A stretch of DNA of 59,323 nt from Malassezia furfur (lineage: Eukaryota). The translations under genes were made by a program, and so were the position numbers. Numbering within the stretch: position 1 is the first letter of the stretch; each line of letters opens with the position of its first letter. The stretch is from NCBI GenBank assembly GCA_052055015.1, contig JBQJIT010000023.1; one strand, given 5' to 3'. The notes beneath the pieces were generated by a model that saw nothing but the letters and a program-made list of their open reading frames with translations, made no database searches and was not told where the DNA came from. This document shows positions 35,646 through 49,277 of the stretch, in pieces.

Positions 35646-36936
35646 ATGCTACCTCCACCTGCGCGGAAGCGTGCAGCATCGAACGACGCACGCATCTTGC
35701 AGCGGCCACGCGCCGAGGACGTGCGGTTGCCAGTGGTGCTCGAGTACCACCGTAACATTGCCCGGGCTACGGCGGTGGTGTGGGATGCGGCGGAGCCGGT
35801 GCGGTGCAATGTCTCCCAGGGAACGCTGACGCTGCGTGCCGGTGAGGCGTGCAATGTCCTGTCGCTCGATTGGCCGCTGGTCGACGGCGTATACATGGGG
35901 GAGGCACAGGACGGGGCCCAGGTGGTCACTTTGCCAGCGCACACCTCGCCGCCGCTCGCACTTGTGCCGCAGTCGCCGTGGCTGCAGTTCGCGTCGGAGC
36001 AGACTCCGGTTTTGGCCCTGGCATGTGCGGCGTGTGGAAGTACATTGATGCAGTGCAGCGGCGCGGCGACACTCCGTGCACTTCCGTCCGAGAACTGGGA
36101 GGAGCTCGTGGATGCGTGGATGTGCCACGGCGACCAACGCCTGAATGCGAGCGTCGTACAAGGGCGTGCGGATGTGGAGCCATCACGCACGCCAGAGCTC
36201 GATCAAATTTGGGTCGGTTCGCTGATGGTGCGCATGAATAGTGCGCAGCTGATGAATGTGCACGTCGCAGATGCTAAGATACCCGGCCCATGGGAGGTAC
36301 GTTTCATGGGGGGCATACCCACGGACCCGCAGAAAGCTCGCACTGGAAACCTACCGTGCGCGGCTGATACTAGGGTCCCAGATTTGGCATTTCACATACG
36401 CCGCGGCGCACGAGCCCCCCTGCACCGTGGCCACAAGGAATGCGACACTAACGCAGGGCGACGCATTCCCCGCATCTTGCGCGCAATGCTCGGCGGTGCT
36501 CGGTGCCGTGCCGGTCCACGACGCGCCGAGCGCCGCGCAACTGCTGCAGACGAGTGTGGTGCCGGTGCCGCGCACGCTGTCCTATGCAACCTACTTCTCC
36601 GAGATCCTTGCCAACTACCTCGTGGAGCAGGCAGACCGGCACGCCGTGCACCACTTCCTCATCCAAGCACTGGGTGCCGAGCCCCAGCCGCGCCTCTTCG
36701 TTTGGGTCTTCCAGCCGATCGTCGAGCTGTGCACCACCCAGCGGATGGCTGTGTGCAAAATTCTGTACCATACGAGCACGACACCCCCGCAGGTTCCCTA
36801 CCACTCCCTCACGCTACCCGCGACACAGTGCGACCTGCTCGCGCAGCTGCTCACCGAGAGCAACGCACTGTACCCCGCGGCACGCAAAAAACTCGCGCAA
36901 TGGCACGTAGGATATTTGCTGCGTACCCTTGTCTAA
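35646..36936 (+). CDS. IPA1: Ipa1/UBE3D (HECT_2 family) protein; one 160-nt intron 36297-36456
   Basis: LACAACG...LRALPSENWEELVDAWMCH is the family signature. Splicing GTACGT...CTAACGCAG restores WE|GDAFPASCAQCSAVLG and the C-terminal CKILY...SNALYP. Confidence 0.82.
36322..36450 (+). ncRNA. Intron-encoded box H/ACA guide RNA, snR81-like, predicted to guide U2 snRNA pseudouridylation
   Basis: Hairpin-hinge-hairpin-ACA layout. 5' pocket AGAA/GATACTA complements U2 UAGUAUC-[U]G-UUCU. AGATTT (degenerate H box) follows 14 nt after the upper stem; ACA is at 36445. Confidence 0.78.
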
Positions 36937-37883
36937 ATACGCTTCACCTTAGGCATCCCCGGGACGACCACCTCGCCCTCGACGGCGCGCGCCTCGACGC
37001 CGATCCGCGGCAGGAACGCCTGGTACCGGATCGGATCGCGCGACTTGAGGTAGCGCAGGATCTTGGCGCGCTTGTGCACGAGCTTCGTCATCGAGCGCCG
37101 GTTGCTGTTGTCCTTGCGTGCACTGCCAAGGTGCTCAGCTAGGTTACGAATGCGGTACGTGAGAATCGCTGCCTGCACTTCGGGCGAGCCGGTATCCAGC
37201 CCCTGTCCGTCGGGGCGAGCGCCAAAGTGCTGCACGATCCGCCGCGTGTTCTCCACCTGGATACCCTTGCCGCTCGCGTTGCGCAGGTCGAGGATACGCG
37301 CCAGTGCATCGGCGCTCTGCTGCTGCTCAGCTTCGCTCTGCGCATGCTCGGCAGCGAGCACTTCGGCCCCCTGGTCGCGGCCGACGTGGACGCTCGCGGC
37401 GTCCAGGACACGGTCCTCGGTCATGACGCGCGGCAGCGACTGGAACAGCGTACGGCGGTCCTTCACGCCCAGTCCAAAGTTGAGGCGCCGCGGGCCGCCG
37501 TATGTCGACGCCTCGGCATTGACCTGAGCATCGTCCGGGCGCGCCGTAGGTTCTACCGGCACGAGCTGCCCACGCCGGTCCTCGGCGAGGCCCCACACCT
37601 CCTCTTTCGAGAGGATAAGCTTGGCAAGTTCTGAGTTATTCCAGTAAGCGTATCCCTCGTCGTTCAGCTGGTGTGCCAGAACGGGGTCGGGCTTGGATAG
37701 CTGGAAGAGACGCTCCATAATTTCGTGGCGCTGCAGGTTGGCATTACGGCGCAAACGCGCGGCACGCCGCCGCTTGCTCTCCATAACAGGCGCACTTGTG
37801 TGTATCGCTGCGATGCTTTCTCTCGGCAGCGCCGCGCGCGCGCCCAGCGCGGCCTGCGCACGCCCAGCGATCGCGCGGAACAT
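36933..37883 (-). CDS. MRPS28: Mitochondrial ribosomal protein uS15m
   Basis: N-terminal targeting-like sequence; DTGSPEVQAAILTYRIRNLAEHL...KDNSNRR...LVHKRAKILRYLK. Confidence 0.92.
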   Translation of the reverse strand: MFRAIAGRAQAALGARAALPRESIAAIHTSAPVMESKRRRAARLRRNANLQRHEIMERLFQLSKPDPVLAHQLNDEGYAYWNNSELAKLILSKEEVWGLAEDRRGQLVPVEPTARPDDAQVNAEASTYGGPRRLNFGLGVKDRRTLFQSLPRVMTEDRVLDAASVHVGRDQGAEVLAAEHAQSEAEQQQSADALARILDLRNASGKGIQVENTRRIVQHFGARPDGQGLDTGSPEVQAAILTYRIRNLAEHLGSARKDNSNRRSMTKLVHKRAKILRYLKSRDPIRYQAFLPRIGVEARAVEGEVVVPGMPKVKRI

Positions 37884-37963
37884 GGTTAGGAACAAAGCCG
37901 ACCTTTGTGTCACGTGACAAAGGAAGAAAGCGGCGCGCGGCACTCGTTTGCAAGTTGATCAAA

Positions 37964-38121
37964 AACGCAAGCGTACGTGGGGGGTCCAGGTGCACTAACC
38001 GCAGCTCCCAGCCACACCCGGTCGTCTTTTGCGGTTCGGGTGCCAAGAGGGCTAATGGTCCTCGTGGGGGTCGAGAACAAAACTGCAACGGTATAGGAAC
38101 CTGTGCACAGTTTCGACAATG
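37964..38121 (+). ncRNA. Candidate independently transcribed H/ACA snoRNA interrupted by a spliceosomal intron (37973-38004); possible snR10 relative
   Basis: Canonical intron in a region with no credible ORF; CTCCCA/TGGGGG hairpin, H box AGAACA 38074-38079, AAACTG/CAGTTT hairpin, ACA 38116-38118. Confidence 0.55.
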
Positions 38122-38551
38122 ACTGCGCAGAGCCGAGAAATTGTAGGACATGTATGATAGTATTAGAAGAATGTGACGTACGAGAAAGTATACATTGACA
38201 GACATACAACGATGCTCTGTGTACAGGCATGGGTGCTAGTGCAGACCGTATGAGCGTCGGAATGGTGCGCGTGATGCTGTTTGGGCGAACCGTGGAAAGG
38301 GAACGACAGGCATACGCTTTCTACTTAAGGAAGTGATGGCGCGAAACCGTACGCATTACATCTTCATCGTACATAGTCACTGACTAGTCATGACGAGAAC
38401 AATTGTCTTGCTATAGTGTTGGCGCGCTTTGCACCATTCCGACCCGCGCCCTGGTCCCCGCTCTTTTTTTGGTGCACAGGCAAACCTCGGCGCACGTGGG
38501 GCCTAGGGTCTCTCCGCACGCCAACAATTTTTTTGGCTCCGTAGACGCGCG

Positions 38552-41339
38552 ATGAAGTTGTACGTGGGAGGCCTAACGCAGCGCGCGCTACTTGGAGGAA
38601 AATGCGGTGGATGAATGGCGGAAGGCGTACATTAACTACCGTGGGCTAAAAAAGCTCATTAAGCGCGTGCATGAACACCATGAAGCGCGCATTGCGCTCA
38701 AGCTGGAGGTGCCTGTCCCGAATGTGCCGCAGCCGGCGCGCACACGGGCCGGAAAGCTCCTGCGCCGCGGGACGAGCTTCTTTACAAACAAGTCCGATTC
38801 GCTACCCCACTATGGGAGTACAGACGACGACCGTTTCTCGGAGTTGCCCCCGGTTTCGCTCGAAGGTACAGGCCTCTCCCTGCCACGTAGTGTTCCGCCC
38901 GACGCCCGGAACAGCGAGGACCTTGAATCGCACGGAACGCATACGCCTGGCACCTCAAGCAGTGTACAGTATAGCAAGGCGGACAAGCGGTCCTCGGCGC
39001 ACGGTCCCCACGTCCAGGAGCCTGGTGAACCGGATGCCTACCCCGGCGAGACGGAGTCAACCGAGCACCCCGTGCCGATCGCGTGGGTGACACCGGACCC
39101 CAAGGCCGAGGGTGAAGACATCGACAAGCTCATTCCGCAGCTGTTTGATTCGGAGGAGCGCAAGTTTTTCTTGGCACTGGACGAGGAAGTGGCGCGCATT
39201 GTGCACTTTTACGAGGAGCGCGAGCGCGAAGCAATTGAGCGTCTCTCGACGCTCGTTACGCAACTCACGGAGCTTGCCGAACATCGCCGCGAGTTCAAGG
39301 CGCAGACGCAAAAAGTTGTGAGCGGCGCAGGTCTGTCGCGCATCTTTTCTTCGGTGCCGCTCAAGATGGGCTCCGAGGAGCTGAAGCGTGCACGGTTGAA
39401 TGCGCAGCACATCCACAAAGATAAGCAGGCCGAGTCTGCTGTCGACGCGGGTGACAAGCGACGTGCCAAGGCCATGGAGCACGTCCAGGCACTCAACATC
39501 GACGCACTACAGCCCGGGACGCCCTCATCGGAGAACCACGACGTGACGCATGCAGTGCATGACCCTGTGCAATACCGCGCGGCCCGCAAAAAGCTGCGTA
39601 CTGCAGTGATCGAGAACCACCGCGCGCTCGAGATCCTCAACAATTACCGCATTCTGAACCGCACCGGTTTCACCAAGATCTTGAAAAAGTTTGACAAGAC
39701 GATGGATTCCGAGGTACTGCAGCCCTACTACCAGACCCGCGTGGTGCCTACGCCCCTCGTGCAATCCGAGACAGTGCCGAAACTGCTCGGCGCAACCGAA
39801 GGTAGGTGGCGCGACTCACCCAGAAATCTTTACTGTATACTTTGAGCACGGCGATGCGAAGCGTGCGCGCGACCTGCTGCGGGAGCCGTCCAATATTCCG
39901 CCGGGGATGCGCGAACATAACCACCACAAGGCGGCGTTCCGTACGGGCTTGTACCTGGGCGTGGCCCTCTGTGCCACGATCCAGGGGCTGCGCGACGCCA
40001 TGCGTCACGAAACGCGCGCAACGATGCCCAACTGGGCGGCGGTGATGCAGCTGTATGGCGCCGAGTTCATCCCGACGATGTTTGCGCTGTTGTTTGGCCT
40101 GAATTTGGTGGGGTGGCAGGCGGTGCGAATCAACACCGTGTTCATTTTCGAGTGGGACGCGGGGCATGCGCTCGAGCCGGCGCAGTACTTTGAGATGCCG
40201 GCGCTGCTCTTGCTGCTGTTGAGCATCTTTTTCTGGGTATCGTTTGCGCAGCCAATGGCAACATCGATCGCGCCGTCGACGTGGCCGCTCGTATGGCTGG
40301 TAATCGTGGTGCTGCTGCTGCTCAACCCCCTGCCGGTGCTCCACCCGTCAAGCCGGCGGTGGTTTGTGGTGTCCTTGTCGCGCGTGTTTACGGGCGGCGT
40401 GCTGTACTCGGTCGAGTTCCGTGACTTCTTCTTGGGCGACGAGCTGAACTCGGTCATGTACTCGTTCGGCAACCTGTGGTTCCTGGGGTGCGAGTACGAC
40501 CACCATTTCCGTGTGCCTGACCAGTGTTCCATGACACGTTCGTGGTGGATTCCGGTGCTGATCGCCATCCCGGCGTTTTTGCGTTTCCTGCAGTGTTTCC
40601 GGCGTTATGTGGACAGCCGCCGGCTGGTGCGCATTCACCTGGTCAATGCGGGCAAGTATGCATCGTCTGTACTGAACGCCTTTTTCTACTTCCACTACCG
40701 CCGGCACGGCTCTACTGGGGGCACGCCGTTTGCGCTGTGGGTTCTGTTTGCGACGATTAACTCGACGTTTACGTGCTCATGGGACTTTATCATGGACTGG
40801 AACGTGCTGCAGCGCAACGCCAAGTACCCACTCCTGCGCAACAACCTGGCATTTGCCGAGGTGTGGCCGCTGTACTACGTTGCGATGGCGACGAACCTGT
40901 TTGTGCGCTTTATCTGGGTGATTTACCTGTTTGGCGGCCCAGCGACCGTGCCGCTGCGCAGCTTCTTGGCAGCGCTGCTCGAGATGCTGCGCCGCTGGCA
41001 GTGGAACTTTATTCGTTTGGAGAACGAGCACCTGGGCAATGCCGATTCGTTCAAGATTGTGCGCGACCGTACGTGGATGCGACTGACCCAGTGCCTTTGC
41101 CCTACCCCACGACGCGGCCCAAGATGGTCGTGGTGGGCGGCGACGACGACGACGACGACGACAAGGACTCGACGCACAGCGGATTCAGCATGCGGCCGTT
41201 CAGCATGCGCTCCGGCAACAGCCAGGCGCAGGCGCAGGACGACCGCACACACCAGACGCTGCAGCGTACGCGCGATGGCCTGCAAGAGGCGCGGCGGCGC
41301 AACACGCACGAGCTCGTAGAAGATGGGGGGTATGCCTAG
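38552..41339 (+). CDS. SYG1: SPX-EXS domain protein (Syg1/XPR1-like); three short introns
   Basis: MKF|ARYLEENAVDEWRKAYINYRGLKKLIK, LNRTGFTKILKKFDK, VEFRDFFLGD, LEMLRRWQWNFIRLENEHLGN. Confidence 0.93.
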
Positions 41340-48904: not shown

Positions 48905-48997
48905 TGACCAGCACGGGGCTCGAACCCGCAACCTCCTGATATGCTCAGTCCAGTGGACTTTCGTAGTCAGACACACTACCAATTGTGCTAACCGGCC
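48905..48997 (-). tRNA. tRNA-Arg(ACG) with 20-nt intron (48941-48960)
   Basis: Cloverleaf GGCCGGT..GCAC/GTGT..TCTGA-CTACGA^A-TCAGG..GCGGG-TTCGAGC-CCCGT..GCTGGTC-A, followed by an oligo-T Pol III terminator. Confidence 0.95.
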
Positions 48998-49067
48998 GTT
49001 CCTAGCCCCCAGTTTTCCTCGAAGCCTTCTTGAGCGCTGGCACATGTTGATGCAGAGAAGAAAAAGT

Positions 49068-49160
49068 TGACCAGCACGGGGCTCGAACCCGCAACCTCCT
49101 GATGTGCTCGGTCCAGAGGACCTTCGTAGTCAGACACACTACCAATTGTGCTAACCGGCC
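49068..49160 (-). tRNA. tRNA-Arg(ACG) second tandem copy, 20-nt intron (49104-49123)
   Basis: Exons identical to the first copy; T-run downstream. Confidence 0.95.
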
Positions 49161-49277
49161 AGACGTTGAACACACGTGTGCAAAAGGAATATACAAGCTA
49201 GTGGACCCTAGCAGTGGGTGCGGTCCTCTGCCACGCATCACCGGTGTGCTTCGTCAGAGCGGGCAGCGTCTTGTCAT

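Follow-up and report, generated by a model that had tools for sequence, protein, structure and literature searches.

A probable snR34/U65-type H/ACA snoRNA gene with a conserved small intron next to MRPS28 in Malassezia

In Malassezia a 670-bp gap separates MRPS28 from a SPX-EXS (SYG1-like) gene, and within it lies a short segment bearing the signals of a spliceosomal intron. Which RNA does the gap encode, and does the intron lie inside the mature molecule? An initial annotation had proposed a spliced H/ACA snoRNA divergent from MRPS28, possibly a processing-only relative of yeast snR10. We examined the fold, the conservation and the rRNA complementarity of the segment.

The locus and its relatives

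The window, i.e. the whole stretch of 59,323 nucleotides analyzed, has a GC content of 62%, and its MRPS28 protein shares 85–86% identity with the proteins of Malassezia psittaci and M. yamatoensis. The features of the locus are collected in Table 1. On the plus strand, neither the spliced nor the unspliced sequence from 37955 to 38552 contains an ATG ORF longer than 36 codons, in line with the earlier description of a region without a credible ORF.

Table 1. Features of the predicted snoRNA locus and its neighbors (positions in the window).
Feature	Position	Strand	Details
MRPS28 (uS15m)	36933..37883	-	PF00312; divergent neighbor; ATG about 70 nt from exon 1
Palindromic E-box-like element GTCACGTGAC	37909..37918		in a short intergenic stretch between the divergent MRPS28 and snoRNA genes
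Exon 1	37955..37972	+	conserved 16–18-nt 5' leader; predicted start
Intron, U2-type spliceosomal	37973..38004	+	32 nt; predicted splicing; 5' site GTACGT, branch CACTAAC 37993–37999, CAG 38002–38004
Hairpin 1	38005..38073	+	basal stem 38005–38010/38065–38070; upper stem; 17-nt side arm 38047–38063
Pocket 1 strands	38011–38015, 38042–38045	+	GCCAC, GCCA; predicted target yeast U2826-equivalent
H box	38074..38079	+	AGAACA; ANANNA in 8/8 sequences
Hairpin 2	38083..38146	+	lower stem 38083–38088/38141–38146; upper stem 38101–38107/38124–38130
Pocket 2 strands	38093–38099, 38132–38136	+	ATAGGAA, GCCGA; predicted target yeast U2880-equivalent
ACA box + 3 nt	38148..38153	+	ACA 38148–38150, invariant in the alignment; predicted mature 3' end 38153
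SPX-EXS (SYG1-like) gene	38552..41319	+	SPX and EXS domains; start about 400 nt past the snoRNA; approximate end, taken from the ORF with the EXS domain

The stretch between MRPS28 and exon 1 contains the palindromic element GTCACGTGAC. Its TCACGTG core lies 48–68 nt upstream of the conserved GATC / first exon in the window and in all 6 relatives checked, and the TCACGTG(A) element is doubled in one of the relatives (L044). We regard it as a candidate promoter element common to MRPS28 and the snoRNA.

A search by MRPS28 alignment led to 22 metagenome loci. All ten Malassezia-like loci that include the 5' part of the gene plus 483 or more upstream bases have the snoRNA at the identical place and in the identical orientation; a comparison of synteny beside MRPS28 had been suggested in the initial annotation. 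These ten loci represent 7 distinct sequences from about four lineages besides the window, with MRPS28 identities of 61–78%. Among the other 12 loci ten have fewer than 70 upstream bases, one lies inside the gene (L042) and one is distant (L054, 34% GC); the latter was not matched by the snoRNA model R1. The same model detected one copy in the window and no match in 94 viral control loci (80 out of at least 120 from one snoRNA pattern, plus 14 from a second), and blastn against plasmids returned chance matches only. H box, ACA box and covarying stems are conserved across the homologous loci, and this conservation supports the proposal of a spliced H/ACA snoRNA divergent from MRPS28.

Scanning the window at Rfam gathering thresholds returned two tRNAs only. 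Two tandem, near-identical tRNA genes lie on the minus strand at 48905–48997 and 49066–49161, whose anticodon loops each contain about 24 nt outside the alignment, probably introns. ARAGORN assigns them to Ser(CGA); the general tRNA model of Rfam runs straight across the insert, which leaves the isotype uncertain.

Fold, boxes and rRNA complementarity

An alignment of exon 2 was evaluated against a structure of 36 base pairs, in which 94.4% of the cells are paired in comparison to 35–49% in slid controls. Two-sided changes occur at 9 pairs, a number reached in none of 500 shuffles; the structure was drawn from the same sequences and their relatedness can inflate this shuffle test. RNAalifold independently gave much the same consensus fold. 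Folded by itself, exon 2 of the window shows no unusual stability (z = -0.80), and the structure therefore rests on conservation and covariation, not on folding energy.

The fold has the hairpin-hinge-hairpin-tail order of box H/ACA RNAs, both in the RNAalifold consensus and by covariation. The first hairpin and its H box appear as originally annotated, with a basal stem, an upper arm and a side arm. The second hairpin had to be redrawn: the short hairpin AAACTG/CAGTTT is present in the letters of the window, but its arms occur in none of 5 relatives checked, and the ACA at 38116–38118 with a 3' end near 38121 gives way to the longer conserved hairpin and its downstream ACA. The predicted end at 38153 is taken from the end of the Rfam model. 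The hinge conforms to ANANNA in all eight sequences and the invariant ACA stands 3 nt before the predicted 3' end. The distance between pocket and box is 14–15 nt for pocket 1, excluding the side arm, and 16 nt for pocket 2, and the pockets pair with their putative targets over 9 bp and 10–12 bp, respectively. Published rules ask for an ANANNA H box and 14–16 nt from pocket to box (PMC5778458, PMC2780460) as well as a pocket-target pairing of 9–13 bp (PMC2780460).

The side hairpin at 38047–38063 is inserted in the 3' side of pocket 1. It measures 16–17 nt and shows 100% pairing in 8/8 sequences, with one-sided (G-U) changes only. A second small element is the invariant ATGAC (usually GATGAC) at 38119–38123 in the apical part of hairpin 2, mostly unpaired in the consensus fold, which is possibly a protein-binding or localization motif.

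The sole relevant Rfam match is RF01292 (snoR2/U65), which aligns to 38003–38153 over the whole model (positions 1–149). The score of 15.3 bits (E = 4) is far below the gathering score of 44 and we therefore treated it as a lead only. MESTIT1_2, the other Rfam match there, looks like chance, and E-value scans of 11 homologous loci and the L041 segment found nothing, L041 giving no match at E <= 10.

Since the Rfam score falls below gathering, membership in the snR34/U65 family was judged by target and architecture. Both pockets were scored at all 173 uridines of a eukaryotic LSU fragment (L030), an rRNA of another organism and 667 nt only, on which the yeast numbering of the targets was deduced from spacing. 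Pocket 1 scores best at one single uridine with 5+4 bp (9, runner-up 6) in 8/8 snoRNA sequences. Pocket 2 scores best at the uridine located 54 nt downstream of this site, again in 8/8 sequences: in the window it forms 7+5 bp (12, runner-up 4), in the relatives 7+3 bp (10, runner-up 8), the 3' strand contributing just 3 contiguous pairs. Yeast snR34, the homologue of U65, modifies U2826 and U2880, which are 54 nt apart as well (PMC5778458, PMC11121408). On this non-host fragment the 5' pocket thus falls on the U2826-equivalent and the 3' pocket on the U2880-equivalent.

A pattern built from the pocket complements matched at least 32 loci in genome contigs, of which 26 among the matches listed share a 67-nt span. 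Twenty of the matches listed were analyzed with Rfam: the 16 among them with the 67-nt span were all identified as LSU rRNA of eukaryotes, the 4 with another span were not. The register and gap range of the pattern were chosen in knowledge of the LSU sequence, and the result is to be read as confirmation rather than blind discovery. In viral contigs the rRNA-target pattern had 0 matches.

Taken from sequence comparison, the locus is almost certainly an orthologue of snR34/U65, i.e. a two-hairpin box H/ACA snoRNA.

The pattern search also showed that many bacterial and archaeal GTDB assemblies contain eukaryotic LSU rRNA contigs, mostly short (16/16 examined), which probably represent contamination. 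One of these contigs (L003) in addition has a group I intron match.

The intron and the mature RNA

The 32-nt GT-AG intron is found in the letters as first described. The window holds 7 copies of the strict intron motif, compared to a mean of 0.37 in 30 dinucleotide shuffles, and about 0.002 copies are expected by chance per strand of the 670-bp intergenic stretch. Its length is typical: curated introns of M. sympodialis average 30 bp (PMC5389616). A GT-AG intron of 28–47 nt is located at the identical position in 10/10 homologous loci, each displaying the pattern GTAYGT ... CTRAC ... YAG. The interior drifts while these U2-type signals are kept: identity to the window is 22–61% for the intron interior, 70–78% for exon 2 and 83–94% for exon 1 (7 distinct homologues), and falls to 45–65% for the flanks / 40 nt upstream. 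These observations make it very likely that the intron is spliced. Usage of the last exon base was dropped as additional support, with 22 other strong introns showing G 9, C 6, T 5 and A 2; the conserved T is not unusual.

We then determined how the exon junction relates to the fold. Once spliced, the RNAs of 7/7 distinct relatives are predicted to form two junction pairs, each with a probability of 0.91–1.0: the final dinucleotide of exon 1 is matched by the dinucleotide at which hairpin 1 closes, just ahead of the H box. The final AG of the intron cannot supply these pairs. The window forms only one of these two pairs, and its basal stem has a probability of 0.09–0.35 even when spliced. No compensatory change at the junction pairs was seen in the sequences compared. 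The two base pairs added by splicing in the relatives suggest that the intron probably lies within the mature RNA. It is likely, as judged from predicted folds, that the snoRNA is interrupted by the intron and that exon 1 is retained; that splicing is strictly required is even less certain.

In the relatives the basal stem is predicted with a probability of 0.00–0.45 unspliced versus 0.89–1.0 spliced, and a G-run in the intron resembles the 3' strand of this stem. We considered the intron as a specific folding decoy and rejected the idea, given that introns with shuffled or random interiors disrupt the basal stem about as much. In 5 out of 6 sequences 68–95 of 100 composition shuffles were at least as disruptive as the natural intron; L035 had 9 of 100.

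Read from the sequence with its boxes, conservation, covariation, complementarity and spacing, the following scheme emerges. The snoRNA would be transcribed by Pol II as a unit of its own, from a short promoter divergently common with MRPS28 in which the TCACGTG element may have a role, and transcription would start just upstream of the intron. The conserved signals predict that the spliceosome removes the 32-nt intron after a first exon of about 10–18 nt. The joined and presumably capped RNA of about 160–167 nt would fold into the two hairpins, with the exon junction in the basal stem of hairpin 1. Predicted assembly with Cbf5/Nop10/Nhp2/Gar1 and trimming of the 3' end to ACA+3 would yield a particle able to pseudouridylate 25S rRNA at the U2826-equivalent (hairpin 1) and the U2880-equivalent (hairpin 2) in the peptidyl-transferase center. 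As a whole, a Pol II-transcribed, spliced and capped snR34/U65 guide is the best explanation of the locus, and we consider it probable. A stronger version is put forward tentatively and appears to us slightly more doubtful than credible: the guide would be genuinely split, the mature capped snoRNA spanning the exon junction, splicing completing the basal stem of hairpin 1 and maturation depending on the spliceosome as that of U3 does.

The alternative that fares best accepts both the snR34/U65 guide and the intron and places the latter in a precursor leader. Exon 1 would be trimmed off in a Rnt1/Rat1-type reaction and the mature RNA would consist of exon 2 only. Every box and both pockets are indeed contained in exon 2, the Rfam match begins at 38003, and without exon 1 most relatives still reach the correct fold, the basal stem being formed in 5/7 of them (0.83–0.99). 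Exon-encoded snoRNAs are described in spliced non-coding fungal hosts (PMC5033589, PMC2780460), and the conservation of exon 1 could reflect start-site and splice-site context. Yet conservation is higher in exon 1 than in exon 2, and the last two bases of exon 1 complement the end of the stem in 7/7 relatives. Yeast snR34 furthermore has a 5' extension before hairpin 1 (PMC5778458), and independently transcribed yeast H/ACA RNAs mostly keep their TMG cap and hence usually their 5' end (PMC10557570). We consider trimming of exon 1 unlikely on these grounds. Since deletion of the 5' extension of snR34, or mutation of the lower stem, left its in vitro activity intact (PMC5778458), exon 1 may nevertheless be dispensable.

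The snoRNA could also be intronic itself, with 37973 joined to a 3' site past the snoRNA, or be cut from a long 5' UTR of the SPX-EXS gene, which lies on the same strand. The window has a branch/3'-site-like sequence, CTGACTAG, about 226 nt after the snoRNA, and fungal snoRNAs in UTR introns are known (PMC5033589). A downstream branch and 3' site is, however, found in 0/7 relatives, and in all of them such a site immediately precedes the snoRNA. The distance to the SPX-EXS start is moreover variable (160 nt at the shortest, 398 nt or more at the longest), with 1–9 upstream ATGs in the 7 sequences whose start falls inside the scanned stretch, which renders this arrangement highly improbable. 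Less probable again is a retained 5' leader in which the intron-like segment stays unspliced or partly spliced and the splice-like motifs serve another role. The 5' portion of the intron is moderately conserved and G-rich and splicing is deduced from sequence, but 5' site, branch point and YAG are kept in 10/10 loci whose introns vary in length and interior, and the chance expectation for such motifs in the intergenic stretch is minute.

The processing-only snR10-like RNA ending at 38121 is barely credible: its basis was a supposed resemblance between the spliced 5' end and that of yeast snR10, whereas both pockets match snR34 sites, neither forms a single pair (0 bp, 8/8 sequences) with the A-loop uridine 97 nt downstream of the pocket 1 site, the short hairpin is not conserved, and CAGCCA occurs in the window only (1/8 spliced sequences). 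The offset of the A-loop uridine corresponds to that of the snR10 target U2923, which is 97 nt from U2826. CAGCCAU had been noted as the processing motif of snR10, but the published element is C75CAUGAA81 (PMC2879522), and the GCCAC at the motif annotated in the window forms the 5' strand of the pocket for the U2826-equivalent. Of the boxes whose conservation was in question, the H box and an ACA, the latter at 38148–38150, are kept and CAGCCA is not. The second hairpin had been described as short; in full length it offers the U2880-equivalent a pocket of 12 bp.

Comparison with known snoRNA genes

The predicted snR34/U65-type guide can be compared to several known systems. Yeast snR34 (S. cerevisiae), vertebrate U65 (SNORA65) and plant snoR2 (RF01292, clan CL00042) are two-hairpin H/ACA guides likewise, alike in a 5' pocket for U2826, a 3' pocket for U2880, ANANNA, ACA, the 14–16-nt spacing and a 5' extension (PMC5778458). 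In contrast to snR34, for which the accessible part of PMC5778458 mentions no intron, the Malassezia RNA has one at the base of hairpin 1; its pocket 1 also contains, on the 3' side, the conserved side arm of 16–17 nt, and it scores below the Rfam gathering score. With snR10 only the H/ACA architecture is common: snR10 guides U2923 and needs C75CAUGAA81 in its 5' hairpin (PMC2879522), and the Malassezia RNA has neither in 8/8 sequences.

Fungal U3 genes with introns (PMC5832005) provide a parallel in gene structure. U3 is a box C/D processing RNA, whereas the Malassezia RNA is a predicted H/ACA guide, and its intron of 28–47 nt is short compared to the U3 average of 92 nt (PMC5832005). In spliced non-coding fungal hosts snoRNA biogenesis is likewise tied to spliceosomal introns (PMC3596301, PMC5033589, PMC2780460). 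Such snoRNAs lie wholly inside an intron or exon, whereas the Malassezia intron is too short to host a snoRNA and appears to split one. Only intronic or exonic snoRNAs, or none, appear in the parts consulted of PMC5824354, PMC5033589, PMC2780460, PMC8216456, PMC8476143, PMC5209728, PMC3990503 and PMC3596301. In the literature searched, mostly excluding subscription papers, U3 alone among snoRNAs is said to carry introns frequently, and neither an H/ACA guide split by an intron nor snR34 of Malassezia is described. Introns have been reported in other basidiomycete snRNA genes too. The guide family is known; what is unusual and rarely described is the structure of the gene, an H/ACA guide that is likely split by a conserved tiny intron.

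The locus would represent a snoRNA annotation missed by Rfam in Malassezia; the M. sympodialis annotation is described as being without snoRNAs (PMC5209728). If the proposed structure is true, H/ACA genes interrupted by introns may make up a wider fungal class that has escaped annotation. Losses of 86–92% of H/ACA RNAs have been reported for three species of Basidiomycota (PMC5824354), and such genes could explain part of these 'losses'. Intron-aware searches may recover fungal snoRNAs that are currently scored as missing. The intron described here separates only a leader and two base pairs from the remainder of the RNA, so that it alone would not defeat a homology search. A position-conserved intron in a compact and intron-reduced genus would moreover offer a simple test of splicing-coupled snoRNP assembly.

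The neighboring SPX-EXS gene has a small first intron as well. In the window it comprises 22 nt (38560–38581, plus strand) after a coding exon of 8 nt, and its removal leads to an open frame of 409 codons. A similar first intron is seen in L034, L035/L036 and L044, and the corresponding frames of L040/L041 read through without an intron. Judged by these reading frames, the first intron of SPX-EXS is a presence/absence difference inside Malassezia.
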